Below are positions 4,319 to 59,246 of a stretch of DNA of 64,000 bases, piece by piece. A program made the position numbers and the translations under genes. This DNA is from Candidatus Bathyarchaeota archaeon (GTDB lineage: Archaea; Thermoproteota; Bathyarchaeia; Bathyarchaeales; Bathyarchaeaceae), in contig JASFHP010000005.1 in the NCBI GenBank assembly GCA_050123155.1, positions 16,551 through 80,550 on the forward strand, given 5' to 3'. Every line of letters begins with the position of its first letter. Positions within the stretch are counted from its first letter, which is position 1. Under the pieces are notes generated by a model, which saw nothing but the letters and a program-made list of their open reading frames with translations, was not told the DNA's origin and ran no database searches.

Positions 4319-5317
4319 CTATATGAAATGTGAAAACAGATCCCCAAAATTCTCAAGTATTTTATTTATTTTCTCATTTGCTTGACTTAAAAAAGGATGC
4401 GAAAAATTGGATACAAACAGACTTGTTACAAAGCGATCAGATTTTTTTCTTTTTTTCTGAATTAGTAATCGTTTTTTTCTGATGTAGGATTTCAATTTAA
4501 GTATGTCAGAATAGGCCCTAATTTTTTTGTGGAGTAGCCCTCGAGAAATACAAAAACAAATCGTTGAGATTTCAATAAGCAGAAGGTAAGGGAATAGCAG
4601 AATTAATGTTCTCTTTGAATAGTTCTTCAATAAAGTAATTATTCGATTTCTTTCTGAGAAAAAAATTTTTCTTGGCAAGTTCGAAGAAGACCCCCAGCGA
4701 TGATAGATGACAGCTGAGGGAACAAATAAACTTCTTAGCCCCATCAATCGTGCTCTCCACCCCCAATCTAAATCTTCTTTATACGCAAAATAAATAGGAT
4801 CAAGATAACCAACTTTCTCGATGGTTTTCCGTGGAAACATAACACATGCCCCAGAAGCATAACCAACACAGTCAACATTTTGATACAACGTTTCCGGTTC
4901 GTTTATACCTCTCATTACAGTGAATCCTCCAAAAGTAATCATATTCCCTGCTGAGTTCAGCAATTTTACGTTGTCATATAATAAAATCTTAGGTTGGTAG
5001 AATGCTGCTTTTTGCTTTTTTGCCACTTCAATTAACTTTCGTATACAAGTTTTTTCCATACAAGTGTCGTAATTCAGCAGTATTATGAAATCTCCTACAG
5101 AGTTGTAGATTCCTAGATTATTACCGATACTGAAACCCAAGTTTCTCTTGAGGGTTATGAGACGAATATCTGGAAATCGATTTTTAGCTAATTTAGCACT
5201 TCCATCTGATGAATTATTGTCCACCAATATCACTTCGAAAGGTTCATAATCTGAATCAAAAAGCGATTGTAGACAGTCTAGAATCACCTCTCTTCCATTG
5301 TAATTTAATACAACCAA
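4319..5317 (-). CDS. Glycosyltransferase family 2
   Basis: (VSL)VVLNYNGREV..EVILVDNNSSDGS..; GT-A fold motifs including a DxD-like YKEDLDW. The listed TTG start truncates the first beta-strand, and the frame is open upstream to 5389 (see finding on ATA at 5386). Confidence 0.8.
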   Translation of the reverse strand: MVVLNYNGREVILDCLQSLFDSDYEPFEVILVDNNSSDGSAKLAKNRFPDIRLITLKRNLGFSIGNNLGIYNSVGDFIILLNYDTCMEKTCIRKLIEVAKKQKAAFYQPKILLYDNVKLLNSAGNMITFGGFTVMRGINEPETLYQNVDCVGYASGACVMFPRKTIEKVGYLDPIYFAYKEDLDWGWRARLMGLRSLFVPSAVIYHRWGSSSNLPRKIFFSERNRIITLLKNYSKRTLILLFPYLLLIEISTICFCISRGLLHKKIRAYSDILKLKSYIRKKRLLIQKKRKKSDRFVTSLFVSNFSHPFLSQANEKINKILENFGDLFSHFI

Positions 5318-5382
5318 ACTTACTAGAGGATTCGATTTTCTATTTGACGTGTAGTTTGAAATTATTAAAATAGAGATCTCTT

Positions 5383-6414
5383 CTATTGTCTACTCTTATG
5401 GTCCAATTGGAGATTTTGAATTTGATGGCGGATCACGTCTTGTAAAATGATCTCATATTCTTCTTTTTTGGTTTTTTGATCTATTGTCAATTTTTTTGTT
5501 CGATAAAGTATTTCTTCTTGTAGAAGTCTCTGTCTAGTGAACATGTCTGCAAATAGGGCCAGTATACCTAGCATAAAACCAATAACCAACATTCCCACGG
5601 TTATTGGTATTAGAGAAGTGAATGGTGAAGTCCTTCCTGTTACGAACCAATTATAAGTAACAAATAGACCAGATGCAAGACCGATCAATAAGAATAGAAG
5701 ACTAATAGACCCAAAGAAGAGGAACGGTCTATAATCTCGTAGAGTTTTAATTATAATACTTAGAGCTTTTGATGTATAGTTATACCAACTTTTTACAACT
5801 CTAGATTTTCCATTATTTCTTTCATCCACTGTTATGGGGACCTCTTTTAATGTTAGCCCCTTAAAAACTAAATCCATAATTGCCTCTTGAGTGTAAGTAA
5901 ATCGCCCCACGGCAGTTAATTTTAAAGCAGCCTCTTTGGAATAAGCTCGGAATCCAGATTGGGAATCGGTGATCTTTTTTCCAATAATAATGCTTAGGAT
6001 CTTAGAAAAAACTCTATTTCCAAGGTTTTTGATCCAATTCATATTGGACTGTTTTGTCTCCTCTAAAAATCTGGAGCCAATAACAAAATCTGCTTCACCA
6101 TTTTCTATCGGTTCAACTAATTTTGGGATATCAATTGGGTCATGTTGTCCATCTGCATCTAATGTCACAATTATATCAGGGTTGTGTTCTAATGCTGCAT
6201 TTATGCCTACTTGAAAAGCTTTTCCTACACCTTTATTGGATTTCAACTTAACAACCTTATCTGCTCCACTATTCATAGCCTTCAAAACCGTACTGTCCCT
6301 CGAACCATCATCAATAACAATAAGAGTGTCAACTATGTTACGAGGAATTCTGACCATCACTTCACCTATAGACTCCTCTTCGTTGAAAGCGGGGATAAGA
6401 ACACAAATTCTCAT
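5383..6414 (-). CDS. DPM1-like GT2 (dolichyl/polyprenyl-phosphate hexose synthase type) with C-terminal transmembrane helices
   Basis: MRICVLIPAFNEEESIGEV..VIDDGSRDST..TLDADGQHDP. Two C-terminal hydrophobic helices (FLFFGSISLLFLLIGLASGLFV; IPITVGMLVIGFMLGILALF). Confidence 0.8.
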   Translation of the reverse strand: MRICVLIPAFNEEESIGEVMVRIPRNIVDTLIVIDDGSRDSTVLKAMNSGADKVVKLKSNKGVGKAFQVGINAALEHNPDIIVTLDADGQHDPIDIPKLVEPIENGEADFVIGSRFLEETKQSNMNWIKNLGNRVFSKILSIIIGKKITDSQSGFRAYSKEAALKLTAVGRFTYTQEAIMDLVFKGLTLKEVPITVDERNNGKSRVVKSWYNYTSKALSIIIKTLRDYRPFLFFGSISLLFLLIGLASGLFVTYNWFVTGRTSPFTSLIPITVGMLVIGFMLGILALFADMFTRQRLLQEEILYRTKKLTIDQKTKKEEYEIILQDVIRHQIQNLQLDHKSRQ

Positions 6415-21575: not shown

Positions 21576-22322
21576 TTATTTGCGGGTCATTATTACTAGC
21601 GAAATTGTGCCGTGATTAGGTAATACTAGGTTAGCGAATCTTTCAAAAAGGTCAACAAGAACGACAGCGTTCTTTGAAAGGAACTTGTCTGCAAAGGGTT
21701 GCAAAACGTGATAACTTCTGCAAGTGATTGTTGATGAATCAAACTTTAGAAATTTTTGTTTAAGCTTCGAAATAGGAAAGATGTGAAAATGTCCCACAGT
21801 TCTATCAATACTAGCAAGTTTTTTAGGAAAAAGGAAGCCCCATATTCCTCTAAAAACTCCTTCGCATGGAGTAGTTATTACTACCAACCCTTTAGAAACA
21901 CGATGAAGCTCAGAAATAACCTTATCATACGCAGGTATGTGCTCAATAACATCTGCACAGATAACTATGTCAAAAAAGTTGGGTCTAAAAGGAAGCAAAT
22001 CAGAACTAGCACAGATTCGAGCATCAACTAAGCTTCGAACTCGTTTCAGATAAGATTTTGAGATATCCAAACTCACAACATTGCCATCTAAATTTTTTGC
22101 ATATACACTAAGTTCGCCAGAGCCACAACCAGCATCAAGCACAAGATTGTTCTGACGAAGCTCAGAATCCAGCAATTCAAAGACTAAGGACGCTTTCTTT
22201 TGATGATAGCGTCTCTCCCAAAAAGCACTAGAATTATATCGATTAGCATTGGACCCTTCTTGTTCATAGAAAGATCGAATATCAATGCATTGATTATCTT
22301 CAAGTTTGGTCTGCAGTATTAT
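21576..22322 (-). CDS. Class I SAM-dependent methyltransferase
   Basis: VLDAGCGSGELS (motif I) and ADVIEHI. The first canonical start (TTG 22175) leaves only 11 aa before motif I. The frame is open and protein-like for 49 more codons up to a TGA at 22328-22326, so the start is placed provisionally at ATA 22322 (see finding). Confidence 0.7.
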   Translation of the reverse strand: MILQTKLEDNQCIDIRSFYEQEGSNANRYNSSAFWERRYHQKKASLVFELLDSELRQNNLVLDAGCGSGELSVYAKNLDGNVVSLDISKSYLKRVRSLVDARICASSDLLPFRPNFFDIVICADVIEHIPAYDKVISELHRVSKGLVVITTPCEGVFRGIWGFLFPKKLASIDRTVGHFHIFPISKLKQKFLKFDSSTITCRSYHVLQPFADKFLSKNAVVLVDLFERFANLVLPNHGTISLVIMTRK

Positions 22323-23467
22323 GCCTCATTTAAAGATAGCGTATCATTAAGCAGGTGGTCAAATTTGAGGGCTGATTTTTCCCATGTGAAGTTTTGAGCC
22401 CACGAAAATGCGTTCTTTGATAGTTTAGTCCACAATTCTTTGTCGACAAACAGTTTTGTTAATGCATCCGAGAATGCTTCAATGTCGCCGTATGGATAAA
22501 CTAGTCCATTATGGCCGTTTATCACGACATCTCCTGGAACCCCATCACTAACAACAACAGGAGTGCCACACCGATTAGCTTCCATCACAACAATACTAAA
22601 ACCTTCCACAGGAGAAGGCTGAACCAAAACACTTGCTCGTTCCAACAAATCAAGCTTTTCGGCTTCTGAGATGTTAAATCTGAACTCCACGTTATCACTT
22701 ACATCCAAATTTTCAGCTAAACCACGAAGTTCATCAACATAATCAGCGTCAATTTCACTGACTTTACCTGCAATAACAAGCGTGTAGTTTTCGTTAGTTT
22801 TTTTAATGACCTCCGCAAGCGCCATAATCGCATGGTCAGGACGTTTATACCGTCGTATTTTTCCCAACCAAACGATAACATTTTCTCGCTCCTCACTCAT
22901 CTTCGCATTATCAAACAACCCTCCAACACCATCATAAATTACCCGTATGCTCTCGCGGTCAAATCCGAGAGTTGCAAGCTTTTCTCTAGCGCCTTTTGAC
23001 GGATTTATAATAGTGCGCTTCCTGTACAATCTCGCTTGAAAGAACTCAAAAAAAGAAAGAACAGCAGCCACAGGATAGGAGTACTGTTCATGAAAGATTT
23101 TATCATGCTTTTGATGCCAAACTGCAACTAATGGCTCCTTAACATACACTGTGCAAAAAAATGGAAAACGCTGACCGCCAATAGCTTCTTCTACAACAAC
23201 ATCAAAATTGCCTTTCAATCTTTTGATGTACATCTTCAAGATTTTAAAAGGCAAACTCCAAACACCTTTTAACCTAACAAACTCAACTCCATCAATTACT
23301 TCTCTCTTTTTAGAATCTGGAAAACTACTGCAAATAATGGTTACGTGATTGCCTAAGTTGGACAAACCTTTGGCTAATTCCCAGAGATAAAAATCTCCGC
23401 CCACTGCTGATGGATTCATAAAATCTCGGTAAACAATAAATAAAACTCGTAATTGAGGTCCATCCAT
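22319..23467 (-). CDS. GT4-family (GT-B fold) glycosyltransferase
   Basis: ..VGGDFYLWELAKGLSNLGHVT..; C-terminal EGFSIVVMEANRCGTPVVVSD (E-x7-E region). Length is 382 aa. Confidence 0.85.
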   Translation of the reverse strand: MDGPQLRVLFIVYRDFMNPSAVGGDFYLWELAKGLSNLGNHVTIICSSFPDSKKREVIDGVEFVRLKGVWSLPFKILKMYIKRLKGNFDVVVEEAIGGQRFPFFCTVYVKEPLVAVWHQKHDKIFHEQYSYPVAAVLSFFEFFQARLYRKRTIINPSKGAREKLATLGFDRESIRVIYDGVGGLFDNAKMSEERENVIVWLGKIRRYKRPDHAIMALAEVIKKTNENYTLVIAGKVSEIDADYVDELRGLAENLDVSDNVEFRFNISEAEKLDLLERASVLVQPSPVEGFSIVVMEANRCGTPVVVSDGVPGDVVINGHNGLVYPYGDIEAFSDALTKLFVDKELWTKLSKNAFSWAQNFTWEKSALKFDHLLNDTLSLNEA

Positions 23468-51720: not shown

Positions 51721-51754
51721 GTTGTTTTGTCTCCCTTATTTTCTTGCAGAAACC

Positions 51755-51763
51755 TTTATATAA
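51755..51763 (+). promoter_or_regulatory. Candidate archaeal TATA box (TTTATATAA) with purine-rich BRE-like AGAAAC upstream, for the his operon
   Basis: Consensus-like TTTATATA in the 95-bp divergent intergenic region, about 53 nt upstream of ATG 51816 and 66 nt upstream of the hisZ frame. Confidence 0.4.
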
Positions 51764-51828
51764 GATGTGCGGAATATGGGTTTCAACCCACAAATTACCC
51801 ATTGGAGGACAAACGATGACAAGGAGGA

Positions 51829-53106
51829 ATAACATTCACCAGACTACACACCCCAAAAGGAACAAGAGACTACCTGCCTAACGAAGTCAAAAAATACCGC
51901 TACATCGAGAACCAGCTGAGAAAAACTTTTGAACTATGGAACTACAGCGAAGTCCGCTCCCCCACCATCGAATTCGTCGAAACCCTATCCACAGGCGTGG
52001 GGTCCGAGCTCGTAGACACCATGTTCAAGTTCCAAGACTTCGACGGAAAGCTTCTGGCATTAAGAGCAGAAATGACGGCGCCAGTCGCCAGAATCGTGAC
52101 AACCAGAATGTCGTCTGCGCCAGAGCCGATTCGCCTATTTTACGTCAACAATGTTTTCAGGTACAGCCAATCTTACCTCAAGAGAGAACGAGAGTTCTGT
52201 CAGGCAGGAGTTGAACTTGTAGGCTGCAACACGCCAGAGGCTGACGGGGAGATACTGTCTCTGTTTATATCATCCCTCAAGCAGGTGGGCTTACAGGAAG
52301 TGAGAATTGACTTAGGTCACGCCAGCCTACTTAAAGACCTATTGAATGCGGCGGGATTGGATGAGCAGCAGAAAGTTTCTGTTTATGGTCTCCTAGCGTG
52401 CCGAGACTTGGTGGGACTAAAGAAGTTCATGGATCAGAACAGTTTTCCCTCAAACTTAAGAGATGCTTTTCTTCAGCTTTCTCGCTGCAGAAGATTAGGT
52501 GAAGTTTCGTCAATTTCTCTCAACGGCTCAAAATACGATGAACTGAACAAGCAGATAGAAAGTCTCTTGGAGCTTCAGGAAATCCTGTCGAACTATGAGA
52601 TAGATGACTTTGTGTTCTTCGACTTTTCTTTGACAAAAAAGATTGAATACTACACTGGGATGGTGTTCGAGGCTTCTGTTCCAAACTTGGGTCTGCCCCT
52701 CGGCGGCGGAGGCAGATACGACAACTTTATCGAAAAATTTGGAAAACTGAGGCTGCCCGCAACAGGCTTCGCTCTGGAAATAGGGAAAATCCTCCAAGCC
52801 CTCACCTCACAGGGTTTCGAAATTCCAGAATCCTCGAAAGCTAAGGTTGTTGTGGCATCCAAATTCAGGGACGCGGCAGTAGAGGCGGTTAAGGCTCTTC
52901 GTGAATCCGGAGTCATCGCCTCACTGGAAATAACAAAGAGATGCCTAGAGAAAACGATGGAATATGGAAAGCTTACGGAGACGGATTACGTGGTTTCGGT
53001 TGGTTCATCCCTTAAATCTCCATTAACAGTTTACGACGTGAAATCAAACGTTTCAAGAGACGTAATGCTCGAAACTTTCTTGGAAGAAGTCGGAGGTCAA
53101 TGTTGA
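51829..53106 (+). CDS. hisZ: ATP phosphoribosyltransferase regulatory subunit (HisRS-like)
   Basis: (I)TFTRLHTPKGTRDYLPNEVKKYRYIENQL.. is the HisS/HisZ N-terminal motif, and it lies upstream of the first canonical in-frame start (GTG 51997). There is no anticodon-binding domain, and a short hisG follows. The start codon is unresolved (ATA 51829, or a frameshift from ATG 51816). Confidence 0.8.
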   Translation: MTFTRLHTPKGTRDYLPNEVKKYRYIENQLRKTFELWNYSEVRSPTIEFVETLSTGVGSELVDTMFKFQDFDGKLLALRAEMTAPVARIVTTRMSSAPEPIRLFYVNNVFRYSQSYLKREREFCQAGVELVGCNTPEADGEILSLFISSLKQVGLQEVRIDLGHASLLKDLLNAAGLDEQQKVSVYGLLACRDLVGLKKFMDQNSFPSNLRDAFLQLSRCRRLGEVSSISLNGSKYDELNKQIESLLELQEILSNYEIDDFVFFDFSLTKKIEYYTGMVFEASVPNLGLPLGGGGRYDNFIEKFGKLRLPATGFALEIGKILQALTSQGFEIPESSKAKVVVASKFRDAAVEAVKALRESGVIASLEITKRCLEKTMEYGKLTETDYVVSVGSSLKSPLTVYDVKSNVSRDVMLETFLEEVGGQC

Positions 53107-53107
53107 A

Positions 53108-53749
53108 ATGAATAAGAAGATTCGCATCGCGATACCCAACAAGGGTCGCCTGAAGGAACCGGCGATTGAGGCGCTGGGGCGGGCAGGAATAGAAGTCTTG
53201 GAAGAGGATAGAGCTTACGTTTCCAAGACCTCTGACCCAAAATTCGAGGCAATCTTCGCCAGAGCCAACGACATACCAGTCTATGTACACTATGGTGCAG
53301 TAGACTTGGGCATCACCGGTCGCGACCTGATTCTGGAAAGAGACGCAGATGTTCTCGAGTTACTGGACCTAGAATTCGGAAAGTGCACTCTCGTTGCTGC
53401 AGTTCCAGAAGATTCAACCATAAATTCTGTGGGTGAGGTTCCTGCTCTGGCAAGGGTTGCAACTGGATTCCCGAACATAACCAGAAAGTTTTTCGAAAAA
53501 ACTGGAAAACAGGTGGAAGTTTTGGAGGTCAGCGGAACAGCAGAACTTGCGCCTAAACTGGGTTTGGCTCAGATAATCGTAGACCTCACATCAACTGGCG
53601 AAACTCTGAGAAAAAACAAGCTCAGAATAATTGGAACAATTCTTGAATCAACCAGCAGACTAGCCTGCAACAAAATCGCGTACAGAACCTTCGAGAAGCA
53701 AATCAGCGAGCTTCTAGCCAGAATGCGAGGAGGGACAGAAGAAGAATGA
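53108..53749 (+). CDS. hisG: ATP phosphoribosyltransferase, short form
   Basis: IRIAIPNKGRL.., DIPVYV..G..DLGITG.D, DLTSTGETLR. At 213 aa it is the short form, consistent with dependence on HisZ. Confidence 0.92.
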   Translation: MNKKIRIAIPNKGRLKEPAIEALGRAGIEVLEEDRAYVSKTSDPKFEAIFARANDIPVYVHYGAVDLGITGRDLILERDADVLELLDLEFGKCTLVAAVPEDSTINSVGEVPALARVATGFPNITRKFFEKTGKQVEVLEVSGTAELAPKLGLAQIIVDLTSTGETLRKNKLRIIGTILESTSRLACNKIAYRTFEKQISELLARMRGGTEEE

Positions 53750-56133: not shown

Positions 56134-57330
56134 ATGGTTTACCAACTGTTGAACGAGGAAAGGCGGATATACGTGAGGGAAGACTCCGAAGAGCCTCTTC
56201 GTGGGATAGAAAAGATAATCTTCGACTTCGATGGGGTGCTTGTTCAAACCAGCCAGTCTTACCGCCAGACAGTGAGAAAGGTTGTTGACTACTACTTCCT
56301 AGAACTATTGGGTCTCGAAGGCGAAGAAGGAAAGCTGGCTACCCTACGGGACATCCAGAAGTTCAAGGACACGGGACTATACAACAACGATTGGAACCTC
56401 TCCTACACCTTCATAACCTACTACCTAACCCTCATAATGAGAGAGCTGGAACAAAAAGGCGCCCTCAAAGAATTCACAAAACAATTCTACATCCTCCAGT
56501 TCTTGGACATCAAAAGCTTCACTCAGTCGCTCCTAAACGTTAGTGACTTCCTTAAGCGCTACGAAATCACCGCCGCAGACCTTGCCAACCTGAAAGACAA
56601 CGGCATCATAAATTTGGATTTGTTCTTGGCGCAAGCCAAACTTGAAAAACCTAAACCCATCGAAACATCGCTTGTGGGAGTCGATCCAGAAGTTGCAGAG
56701 GATGAACAGCTTCTTGTCAGAAAGCTGGTGCCCTATGACCTTGAGAAGCCTGATCTGCTGAAGCGACTGTTTGAGGAAACCTATCTGGGCAAAGAATTGT
56801 TCACCAAAATTTATGCTGCCCAATCATTCTTCAAATTTGACGGAAGCTTCATAGACAAAGAAACGTTCATTCCCACCAAGCAGACCATGGAACTGCTTCG
56901 CAGACAGTTTGGCACGTTCGGAATCTACTCGGGAAGACCCAGACCCCAAGGTATGTACATCCTAGAAAAATACGGTTACACTGGATACTTTGACGAAAAA
57001 GAATCCGTGTTTCTCGGAGACCTCCTCAAGTCCGAGGATAAAATGGAAAAGCTTGGGAAACCAGACCCCACCCTCTTCATCGAGTTGATAGAGAAACTTG
57101 TTGACCGAGAAACTGGAGTGGCGTATGTGGGAGACGGAATCGCCGACGCCCTGCTGGTTGAAAATGCAAGGTCTGAGGGTGCCGAGAATTTGTTGTTTCT
57201 GGGTGTTATGTCCTCATCGGAGGATTCAAATAAGCTTTTTACTGAATACGGCAAACATGGGGCTGACGTAATTATGACCGATGCAAATGACATTCCATTC
57301 ATGCTCAAAAGTTTGGGAGGAAGTGTTTGA
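56134..57330 (+). CDS. HAD-superfamily hydrolase with an unusually large cap insertion; candidate histidinol-phosphatase
   Basis: HAD motifs I FDFDGVL, II GIYSGRPR, III GKPDP, IV VGDGIADA. About 240 aa lie between motifs I and II. It is the only non-his-annotatable gene in the operon, sitting between hisC and hisB. The start is ATG 56134. Confidence 0.7.
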   Translation: MVYQLLNEERRIYVREDSEEPLRGIEKIIFDFDGVLVQTSQSYRQTVRKVVDYYFLELLGLEGEEGKLATLRDIQKFKDTGLYNNDWNLSYTFITYYLTLIMRELEQKGALKEFTKQFYILQFLDIKSFTQSLLNVSDFLKRYEITAADLANLKDNGIINLDLFLAQAKLEKPKPIETSLVGVDPEVAEDEQLLVRKLVPYDLEKPDLLKRLFEETYLGKELFTKIYAAQSFFKFDGSFIDKETFIPTKQTMELLRRQFGTFGIYSGRPRPQGMYILEKYGYTGYFDEKESVFLGDLLKSEDKMEKLGKPDPTLFIELIEKLVDRETGVAYVGDGIADALLVENARSEGAENLLFLGVMSSSEDSNKLFTEYGKHGADVIMTDANDIPFMLKSLGGSV

Positions 57331-57331
57331 A

Positions 57332-57910
57332 ATGAGAAAAGTGAAGGTTGAAAGAAAAACCAAAGAAGTAGAAATAGCCGTGGAGTTAAACGTTGACGGA
57401 AAAGGAAACGCAGATGTGGAGACGGGAATCAAGTTTCTGGACCACATGCTGGTCACTCTAGCGAAGCATGGGCTATTCGACCTGAAAGTCAAAGCAGACG
57501 GAGACCTACCACACCACGTCAGCGAGGATGTAGCATTGGTTCTAGGCGAAGCGCTACGTAAAGTGGTGGCTGAAGGGAAGGGCATCAAACGGTTCGGCTC
57601 AGCCTACGTTCCCATGGACGAATCATTGGCAAGAGCGGCTGTGGACTTGGGCGGAAGAGCCTACTCGATTCGAAACCTCAGACTGATGCAAGCGCAGGTC
57701 GAAGACATGAAAACCGAGGACATGGAACACTTCTTCGACTCCTTAGCCCAAGCCTCGAAAGCAAACATTCACGTAACAGTCATCTACGGCAGCAACGAAC
57801 ACCACAAAGTAGAGGCGGCTGTGAAAGCCTTAGCCTTGGCATTAAGACAAGCATTAACCATTGAGCCGAGAATCGGAGACCAGGTTCCAAGCGCAAAGGG
57901 GGTTCTGTAA
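57332..57910 (+). CDS. hisB: Imidazoleglycerol-phosphate dehydratase
   Basis: RKTKEVEI.V.L..DG.G, GI.FLDHML, DLPHHVSEDVALVLG, NEHHKVEA. ATG 57332 is preceded by GGGAGG. Confidence 0.92.
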   Translation: MRKVKVERKTKEVEIAVELNVDGKGNADVETGIKFLDHMLVTLAKHGLFDLKVKADGDLPHHVSEDVALVLGEALRKVVAEGKGIKRFGSAYVPMDESLARAAVDLGGRAYSIRNLRLMQAQVEDMKTEDMEHFFDSLAQASKANIHVTVIYGSNEHHKVEAAVKALALALRQALTIEPRIGDQVPSAKGVL

Positions 57911-58521
57911 CGGCACCGCAAGTTGCAGTTGTGAACTATGGCGTGGGAAACCTGAGAAGCATCACGAGAGGACTCGAAAAATCGGGAGCAACCGTAGAGA
58001 TAACCCACAACCCAACAAATCTGCGCCGCTCTGATGCCATAGTTCTTCCAGGCGTCGGCGCCTTTGCCCCCGCAGTCAAAAACATGGCACCAATAACTGA
58101 TGTTGTAGCTGAGACAATGAAGAACGGCAAACCTATCCTTGGAGTGTGTTTAGGTCTTCAGCTCCTGTTCACGCGTAGCAGCGAAGGCGGATCAGTCAAT
58201 GGACTGGACTTTATTTCAGGAGACATCGTCAAGTTGCCTGAAACTGTGAAGACTCCCCAGATGGGATGGAACACCCTTAACATGGTGCAGTCGCATCCGC
58301 TGCTTGAGGGCGTTAAAGACGGCTCTTACGTCTATTTCGTTCACTCATACTATCCGCAGCCCACAGACCCACAGGTAATCGTAGCAACCACAGAATACGG
58401 GGTCAGGTTTCCTTCAATGGTTGCAAAAAAGAACCTGTTTGCTACACAGTTTCACCCAGAAAAAAGCAGCAAAACAGGATTAACCATGCTGAAGAACTTC
58501 GTGAGGATCGTGAAGAGGTAA
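57907..58521 (+). CDS. hisH: Imidazole glycerol phosphate synthase, glutamine amidotransferase subunit
   Basis: (QVAVV)NYGVGNLRSI, LPGVGAF, GVCLGLQLL (nucleophile Cys), FHPEKS. The first canonical start (GTG 57931) removes the conserved first beta-strand. The provisional start is GTA 57907, which overlaps the hisB TAA (see finding). Confidence 0.85.
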   Translation, partial: VTAPQVAVVNYGVGNLRSITRGLEKSGATVEITHNPTNLRRSDAIVLPGVGAFAPAVKNMAPITDVVAETMKNGKPILGVCLGLQLLFTRSSEGGSVNGLDFISGDIVKLPETVKTPQMGWNTLNMVQSHPLLEGVKDGSYVYFVHSYYPQPTDPQVIVATTEYGVRFPSMVAKKNLFATQFHPEKSSKTGLTMLKNFVRIVKR

Positions 58522-58526
58522 CCGAG

Positions 58527-59246
58527 ATGATAGTTATCCCCGCAGTCGACATTCTGGACGGAAAATGTGTTCGGCTTGTCCGAGGAGACCCTAGCAGAAG
58601 CAAGATCTACTACGATAATCCGGTGGAGGCGGCTCAACTGCTGGAAGAGCAAGGGGCAGAATTCCTTCATCTGATTGACTTGGATGCCGCGTTAGGTTCT
58701 GGACAAAACTTGGAAACAATCAAAAACGTGTTAGAGAATATCAGTGTGAAGGTGCAGATTGGCGGAGGAATCAGAACCTTGGAAAAGGCTGATGCTCTGC
58801 TGAAACTTGGCGCCTATCGAGTGATCTTCGGAACAACCGCAGTCAACAATCCCCCATTGGTTCAAGAGGCGGTTAGACAGCACGGGCCAGAAAGCGTTGC
58901 CGTAGCCATAGACGAGAAAGACGGGAAAGTGGCAGTTCACGGCTGGAAGAACAGGTCCGAAATAGATTGCTTGAGCCTCGCCCGCACATTCGAAGGGATG
59001 GGAGTCGGCGCCTTAATCTTCACGCCAATCAGCGTGGACGGAACCTTGAAGGGACCAGTAATAGAAAAAACCGTGAAGCTGGTGGAAGCGGTGAAGACTC
59101 CTGTTATCGCGTCTGGTGGCGTAGCCAGCCTTGAAGACTTGGTTGCGCTAACTGGAACTGGCGTGGAGGGTGTGGTGGTTGGCACTGCACTTTACGAGAA
59201 AAGGTTTACATTAAGGGAGGCTTTGGAGGCGGTGAAAGGATGTTAG
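58527..59246 (+). CDS. hisA: ProFAR isomerase
   Basis: [31 protein letters not shown], and a SGGV region. Length is 239 aa. Confidence 0.92.

Follow-up and report, generated by a model that had tools for sequence, protein, structure and literature searches.

Results

The hisB-hisH junction

We analysed a stretch of 64,000 nucleotides (nt) from a Candidatus Bathyarchaeota archaeon (assembly GCA_050123155.1, contig JASFHP010000005.1, positions 16,551 to 80,550), called the window below, in which hisB and hisH follow one another in a histidine operon. The first β-strand of HisH is encoded upstream of the first ATG, GTG or TTG codon in the hisH frame, and its inclusion in the product depends on a non-canonical start. 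The features of the junction are collected in Table 1, where gaps are counted from the Shine-Dalgarno (SD)-like motif. The hisH frame follows a TGA at 57862-64 and is open from 57865 (translation AENRRPGSKRKGGSVTAPQVAVVNYGVGN); in full it reads AENRRPGSKRKGGS-V-T-A-P-Q-V-A-V-V-N-Y-G-V-G-N. Between 57865 and the GTG at 57931 it contains no ATG, GTG or TTG. A preliminary description of the locus had read the frame in this way and had noticed that GTA at 57907-09 overlaps the hisB TAA as GTAA; both statements are correct. A run of 22 codons lacking a start codon has a chance of about 0.35 and is not rare. The missing start is significant because of homology and of its recurrence in relatives, not because of the codon count.

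Table 1. Features of the hisB-hisH junction (window positions), with codon states at orthologous junctions and parsimony changes per codon position in 51 sequences
Feature	Position	Strand	SD gap (nt)	Codons at 63 junctions	Changes at codon positions 1, 2, 3	Remarks
hisB (imidazoleglycerol-phosphate dehydratase)	57332..57910	+				ends in ...PSAKGVL-TAA; NF002111 equivalog, 242.7 bits, 1-192 to 3-194 of 194
Block of frozen synonymous sites, hisB 3' end	57871..57906	+				last 36 nt; third-position changes 0-4, mean ~1.9
Candidate stem enclosing SD-like motif and all candidate starts	57881-94 with 57941-54; 57901-05 with 57933-37	+				outer helix: 96.9% of cells paired, 48 sequences
SD-like AGGGGGT	57897..57903	+				57899-57904 invariant in 51/51 aligned sequences; 57898 changes once
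GTA, candidate start	57907..57909	+	4	GTA 38, ATA 13, GTG 5, TTG 1, TTA 1; out of frame 5 (L005-type, 1-nt deletion)		-4 overlap geometry (GTAA with hisB stop)
hisB stop TAA	57908..57910	+
ACG, candidate start	57910..57912	+	7			-1 overlap geometry (TAACG); TAATG at the corresponding hisB stop of distant Bathyarchaeia
GCA	57913..57915	+	10	ATA 42, ATT 4, GCA 15, GCG 2		aligned with ancestral ATG of M-P-Q/K
Pro codon	57916				1, 1, 11	four synonymous codons all used
HisH strand 1 codons (QVAVV)	57919..57933	+				DSSP strand E5-9 in structure model; PDB and profile alignments
Gln codon	57919				4, 1, 5
GTT (Val)	57922..57924	+	19	GTG 40, GTT 9, GTA 9, ATT 3, ATA 1, GCG 1	1, 1, 11	GTG in most relatives; gene callers' start for 199-aa form
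Val codon	57928				1, 0, 9
GTG (Val), first canonical start in hisH frame	57931..57933	+	28	GTG 54, GTA 4, GTC 3, GTT 2	0, 0, 5	product 196 aa, begins MNYGVGN
Rest of hisH	57934..58521	+

The first strand of HisH

The translation from 57865 matches the HisH profile TIGR01855 over its full length (231.4 bits against a cutoff of 105.4; profile positions 1-197 of 198, residues 20-214 of the translation), and profile position 1 falls on the valine at 57922. In solved HisH chains (4gud, 1ka9, 1gpw) just 2-3 residues precede the residue aligned to the Q/V at 57919-24. A structure model has a predicted local distance difference test score (pLDDT) of 87 for residues 1-10; its overall pLDDT was 55, with a shallow alignment, and its N-terminal part alone was used. 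Because the hidden Markov model, the PDB alignments and the structure model all put the strand upstream, a protein begun at GTG 57931 would be without the first core strand. The preliminary description had likewise placed a conserved first strand ahead of the first canonical start, and the profile, the solved chains and the model bear this out.

The gene otherwise looks healthy. Its catalytic triad, Cys81, His183 and Glu185 in the numbering of the 204-amino-acid (aa) form, is intact and falls in invariant alignment columns, and the ratio of nonsynonymous to synonymous substitution rates (dN/dS) is 0.10-0.24 against the nearest relatives. By its pattern of substitution hisH is under purifying selection. 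It lies in an operon with hisA (58527; NCBIfam equivalog NF010112) and a putative hisF: the open reading frame (ORF) at 59240 agrees in position and in its length of 269 aa with the PF00977 His_biosynth gene found next after hisA at the loci of orthologs.

One alternative would be translation from GTG 57931, giving a HisH of 196 aa without strand 1 that is either adequate or crippled by a recent loss of the GTG at 57922. That codon is the sole ATG, GTG or TTG on offer, gene callers do produce the 196-aa form (P0002, P0014), and in Escherichia coli the intrinsic strength of GTG far exceeds that of GUA or ACG (10.1101/063800). Such a start deletes the whole first strand, however, and the purifying selection acting on hisH counts against it. 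With the further points given below on codon conservation and ribosome binding, we consider this alternative unlikely.

Start codons at orthologous junctions

DNA of 63 hisB-hisH junctions from Bathyarchaeia was gathered from species-representative genomes, metagenome contigs and contig look-ups. The closest proteins are HisH of Bathyarchaeota and Bathyarchaeum, with 85-95% identity; the window's own hisH and hisA products have no entry in the contig index. In relatives, HisH has been called at five lengths, 204, 202, 199, 196 and 192 aa, with the N-termini V/M-T-A/I-P-Q-V-A-V-V, M-P-Q-V, V/M-A-V-V, V-N-Y-G and V-G-N-L, respectively. The called length of a homolog was rejected as a proxy for the presence of a start codon: a Joint Genome Institute (JGI) call of 196 aa (P0093, on a 22,132-nt contig) was made even though locus L091 has GTG at the position of 57922.

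In about a third of the junctions (20/63), neither 57907 nor 57922 holds a canonical start. GTG is missing from 57931 as well in five of them (L012, L113, L165, L116, L015), and a non-canonical start is therefore unavoidable there if HisH is functional. Counted over all orthologs, the codon at 57931 is GTA, GTC or GTT in 9 of 63, which speaks against its general use for initiation. ATA or ATT stands at 57913 in 18 of the 20; the exceptions are the window and L162, whose junction reads GTA ACG GCA CCG CAA GCG, with GCG at 57922. The feature is thus real and recurrent in the clade.

More distant Bathyarchaeia, at about 50% identity, preserve what appears to be the ancestral arrangement. There, hisB ends in K-G-V-I-TAA, the stop overlaps an ATG as TAATG, and HisH begins M-P-Q/K-A-V-I-F-D-Y-G. 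By protein alignment the ancestral methionine corresponds to 57913, where most of the clade has ATA and the window GCA. Counted from the hisB stop instead, the equivalent of TAATG is TAACG in the window, that is, ACG 57910-12. All 17 junctions with GCA or GCG at 57913 have ACG at 57910. Two NCBI proteins, P0033 (on the contig of L006) and P0041 (L095), have as their first residue a methionine encoded by the ATA that corresponds to 57913, and so in public annotation ATA already counts as the start of the ATA allele.

The preliminary description had proposed GTA 57907 as the hisH start and had named GTGA or ATGA at the same position in related genomes as a way of checking it. Six of the 63 junctions do have a canonical start there that overlaps a TGA stop: GTGA in L013, L115, L117, L163 and L164, and TTGA in L007. 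Over the junction stretch L163 differs from the window solely in having GTG for GTA. The junction of L015, which is sister to these GTGA loci, reads GTAA, with no canonical start nearby.

Each state of the window is a single base away from that of relatives (L001, L002, L163), as would be expected if the missing start were an assembly or sequencing error, for instance a G misread as T at 57924 or as A at 57909. Independent assemblies nevertheless show these states again, with GTT at 57922 in 9 junctions and GTA at 57907 in 38, and L162 independently lacks all the starts, with GCG at 57922. We rejected sequencing error on the ground of this recurrence and regard it as very improbable.

At 57910-57915 the junctions carry the alleles ACG-GCA (T-A) and GCN-ATA (A-I), plus ACN-ATN (T-I); the combination A-A is never seen. 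These alleles are interspersed over the hisH tree (loci L001-L165), with about 8 switches of four linked bases. Their distribution is suggestive of recombination at the junction or of a polymorphism that has long persisted there.

Substitution patterns along the junction

Substitutions were analysed in the 51 of the 63 junctions that are distinct over 690 nt. Parsimony (Fitch) changes were counted per column on a neighbour-joining tree built from the downstream 570 nt.

Upstream of GTG 57931, too, substitutions keep a three-base periodicity (Table 1). Because their third positions drift, the GTG codons at 57922 and 57931 behave as ordinary sense codons for valine. Judged by these counts, the Pro codon at 57916 and everything downstream of it is translated and evolves as coding sequence, and the start used across the clade is at or before 57913.

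These data bear on a second alternative, initiation at GTT 57922 as a mutated descendant of the GTG of relatives, which would yield a 199-aa protein (MAVVNYG...) at low efficiency. That GTG is found in 40 of 63 orthologs and in 15 of the 17 that share the window's allele (GCA or GCG at 57913), and position 1 of TIGR01855 aligns there. On the tree, however, the third position of the codon has changed 11 times, to GTT, GTA, ATT or GCG among its states, as a sense codon would, and the Pro codon upstream of it has a coding type of conservation with four synonymous codons. GTT 57922 also lies 19 nt from the SD-like motif and 11 nt past the hisB stop. We find initiation at this codon distinctly improbable.

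Upstream of the overlap the pattern changes. Third positions in the last 36 nt of hisB are nearly frozen, against 4-21 changes (mean about 12) per third position at 57814-57868 of the same gene. The first 10 hisH codons after strand 1 (57934-57963) are also unusually conserved. The two conserved stretches, 57871-57906 and 57934-57963, would fit an extended initiation region or a stem that sequesters the SD.

Signals for initiation

The SD-like AGGGGGT lies inside the 3' end of hisB. The 3' end of archaeal 16S rRNA is ACCUCCU, and AGGGGGT is complementary to this general anti-SD sequence, which is not taken from the present genome, with one G.U pair. In genes of the window that have a strong SD and a clear start, a gap of 6-13 nt, most often about 10, separates the last G of GGAGG from the start. 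Spacing would thus favour a start at 57910-57916: it would suit the ATA of relatives very well, ACG acceptably, GTA marginally and GTG 57931 not at all.

Termination-reinitiation in Haloferax volcanii and E. coli works at overlaps of -4 and -1 and is almost abolished at about 20 nt (PMC10666635; PMC6728339). GTG 57931, which lies 20 nt past the hisB stop, is disfavoured by this loss of coupling with distance (PMC10666635); moreover, no SD is found within 28 nt of it. The two candidates that do overlap the stop, GTAA and TAACG, have the 4- and 1-nt geometries without a canonical start codon.

A stem predicted to enclose the SD and all candidate starts (57881-94/57941-54) could explain the frozen synonymous sites. 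Its alignment showed no covariation above shuffles, and the z-score for the single sequence was -1.2. A 5-bp stem proposed by the alignment fold (57870-74/57883-87) was rejected on reading the sequences, two of its pairs being broken in L013.

A start codon would not be needed at all if a HisB-HisH fusion were made by -1 ribosomal frameshifting on A_AAG_GGG (57895-57901). This heptamer is invariant and lets both tRNAs re-pair after the slip, and no ortholog has a hisH-frame stop between it and hisH. The invariance is explained by the K-G codons together with the SD, no covariation supports a frameshift-stimulating structure, and no HisB-HisH fusion occurs among the homologs listed. In the five L005-type junctions (L005, L006, L102, L106, L107), moreover, a 1-nt deletion places hisH in the +1 frame relative to hisB; the two genes do not keep one frame relation throughout, and -1 frameshifting was rejected as a general mechanism. 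We give it a very small chance in the window.

Discussion

A probable non-canonical start for hisH

The reading that we favour, with a probability of roughly 0.55-0.65, is that the functional start of hisH is a non-canonical codon upstream of strand 1. A somewhat better than even case can be made that the canonical start codons of the gene have decayed while the gene stayed functional. Initiation, at low efficiency, would take place on a non-canonical codon beside the hisB stop, GTA 57907 or ACG 57910, with GTT 57922 as a weaker option. Two things would drive initiation, the invariant AGGGGGT near the end of hisB and coupling to ribosomes that terminate on hisB. The present state may have arisen by turnover: the ancestral ATG would have become ATA or ATT, or been replaced by GCA; a GTG overlapping TGA would have arisen at 57907 and turned into GTA when TGA became TAA; and a GTG at 57922 would have been available in many genomes without being conserved. 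The window and L162 would then have lost all of these canonical and near-canonical starts. We infer the mechanism of initiation, the coupling and the codon used from the sequence, as the most likely interpretation.

Several observations weigh against this interpretation. The window and L162 are the sole two of 63 junctions that have neither a canonical start at 57907 or 57922 nor ATA or ATT. The GTA proposed lies 4 nt from the SD and differs from AUG at two positions, and in E. coli codons other than AUG, GUG, UUG, AUA, AUU, AUC and CUG initiate at about 0.1-1% of the level of AUG (bioRxiv 10.1101/063800). In addition, GTG at 57922 has been kept in 15/17 junctions with GCA or GCG at 57913 versus 25/46 where that codon is ATA or ATT (Fisher p=0.018, with no correction for phylogeny). 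This hints that 57922 may have been the working start of the GCA/GCG allele, since lost in the window; the window's GTT may then be a recent loss of a start codon, as the alternative of a start at GTG 57931 supposes, and a shortened protein begun at GTG 57931 may be the main product.

As to the codon, GTA and ACG appear to be roughly equal candidates, between which the sequence does not decide. GTA is one mismatch from the GTG of L163 and two from AUG. ACG shares 1 nt with the stop, in the manner of the ancestral TAATG, and has a 7-nt spacing and a single mismatch to AUG. The proposal of GTA as the start thus stands in part: a real GTG or TTG start exists at that position in six relatives, one of them (L163) otherwise identical to the window in this stretch, and GTA itself is not singled out.

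Comparison with known systems

In its general type the mechanism is already known, as non-canonical initiation in a coupled operon, and it is partly reflected in the NCBI annotation of orthologs. Overlapping stop/start pairs of the ATGA/GTGA and TAATG/TGATG kinds (Huber et al. 2019, PMC6728339; 2023, PMC10666635) likewise join serial genes of a pathway, with an SD in the 3' end of the upstream gene. The candidates of the window have the exact -4 (GTAA) and -1 (TAACG) geometries, and its relatives have the canonical GTGA and TAATG. Unlike in those pairs, neither overlapping codon of the window is canonical, and coupling here is putative.

A second parallel is near-cognate initiation, exemplified in prokaryotes by the AUU start of infC. 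Here, too, a conserved gene under selection lacks AUG, GUG and UUG where its homologs start, and its orthologs have ATA or ATT at the site of the ancestral ATG. The window differs in having GCA at the ancestral site, and its candidates, GUA with two mismatches and ACG with a mismatch at the second position, belong to the weakest class in E. coli. In that species AUA, AUU, AUC and CUG initiate at 1-2% of AUG (bioRxiv 10.1101/063800). A review of archaeal start codons gives AUG, GUG and UUG alone (PMC7531240), and our literature search for archaeal AUA, GUA or ACG starts found nothing specific and no archaeal measurements.

The protein itself is ordinary. With HisH of Thermotoga maritima, Thermus thermophilus and Vibrio cholerae (1gpw_B, 1ka9_H, 4gud_A) it shares the class I glutamine amidotransferase type and the Cys-His-Glu triad, at an identity of some 30-35% as estimated from alignments. 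Strand 1 of the solved proteins begins 2-3 residues after the initiator methionine. The start codon is the sole anomaly of the window's HisH.

The surrounding operon

The his operon around the junction appears intact. ORFs at 53108, 53746, 55037, 56134 and 60065 fit hisG, hisD, hisC, a HAD hydrolase and hisIE, respectively, by synteny with Pfam-labelled genes only (L161, L166, L167). The HAD-family hydrolase, of about 398 aa (56134-57330, plus strand), has a weak match to TIGR01548 and in all relatives follows hisC and precedes hisB; probably it serves the operon as histidinol-phosphate phosphatase. Its start is called inconsistently, and so is that of hisB, for which gene callers give 192 or 207 aa.

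Other genes with possible non-canonical starts

The preliminary description had presented GTAA at hisH as the second instance in the window of a pattern in which a codon of the form NTA overlaps a stop; the other instance is a methyltransferase gene at 22325. As a general pattern this fails, since the best candidate start of most hisH orthologs is an ATA that does not overlap the stop. In the methyltransferase gene (21576-22325, minus strand; PF08241/PF13489) the first canonical start is TTG 22175, with about 47 conserved residues upstream of it. The GT4 gene upstream ends in TAA 22321-19, which together with ATA 22322-20 makes up an ATAA overlap. In alignments the homologs begin, with M or L, at CTG 22316-14, right after ATA ATA, and not at the ATA that overlaps the stop. 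An identical shortened call of 199 aa (P0121) exists on a 156-kb JGI contig.

In a GT2 glycosyltransferase gene (4319-5389, minus strand), the stop TAG 5385-83 of the preceding AglJ-like gene overlaps an in-frame ATA 5386-84 (ATAG). The open stretch encodes EEISILIISNY ahead of TTG 5317, and family profiles begin 2-7 residues upstream of that TTG. This gene was set aside as an ambiguous case of ATA plus stop, TTG 5317 already giving MVVLNYNG.

A hisZ-like gene (PF13393) was studied in the window at 51753-51997 (plus strand) and in L166, L167 and L169. Its frame opens at 51820, after TGA 51817-19, and offers no canonical start before the domain; the Pfam tRNA-synt_His domain begins 46 residues before GTG 51997, the first canonical codon. 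An in-frame ATA at 51829-31 directly follows AAGGAGGA, and in four relatives all substitutions after this ATA are synonymous in the hisZ frame. The sole well-spaced pair of an SD and an ATG or TTG nearby, GGAGG (51804-08) with ATG 51816 (TTG in L166), is in a different frame: it would need a +1 shift to enter hisZ and otherwise makes a 21-codon ORF ending at TAA 51879-81. The arrangement may reflect initiation at the ATA, a programmed +1 shift or an upstream ORF with a regulatory role. At 51755-62 there is a TATA-like TTTATATA.

We raise, tentatively and at less than even odds, the possibility that selection on start codons is relaxed in this Bathyarchaeum-like lineage, with AUA, AUU, CUG and perhaps GUA or ACG serving as real starts in several genes. 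Besides hisH in the clade as a whole, the methyltransferase (22316-22322) and the hisZ-like gene (51829) would be candidates; a strong SD and stop-start coupling would help. If this were true, gene callers would systematically shorten such proteins, and start codons would turn over freely. In the case of HisH, gene callers cut the protein to 196 or 192 aa with the loss of a core strand, and this introduces errors into protein families and into the metabolic reconstruction of Bathyarchaeia. The clade amounts to a natural series of variants at three start positions, running from ATG to ATA or ATT and to GCA, from GTG to GTA, and from GTG to GTT or GTA and to GCG. Such a series could show how much the identity of the start codon weighs in archaea if the ribosome is placed by an SD together with stop-start coupling.

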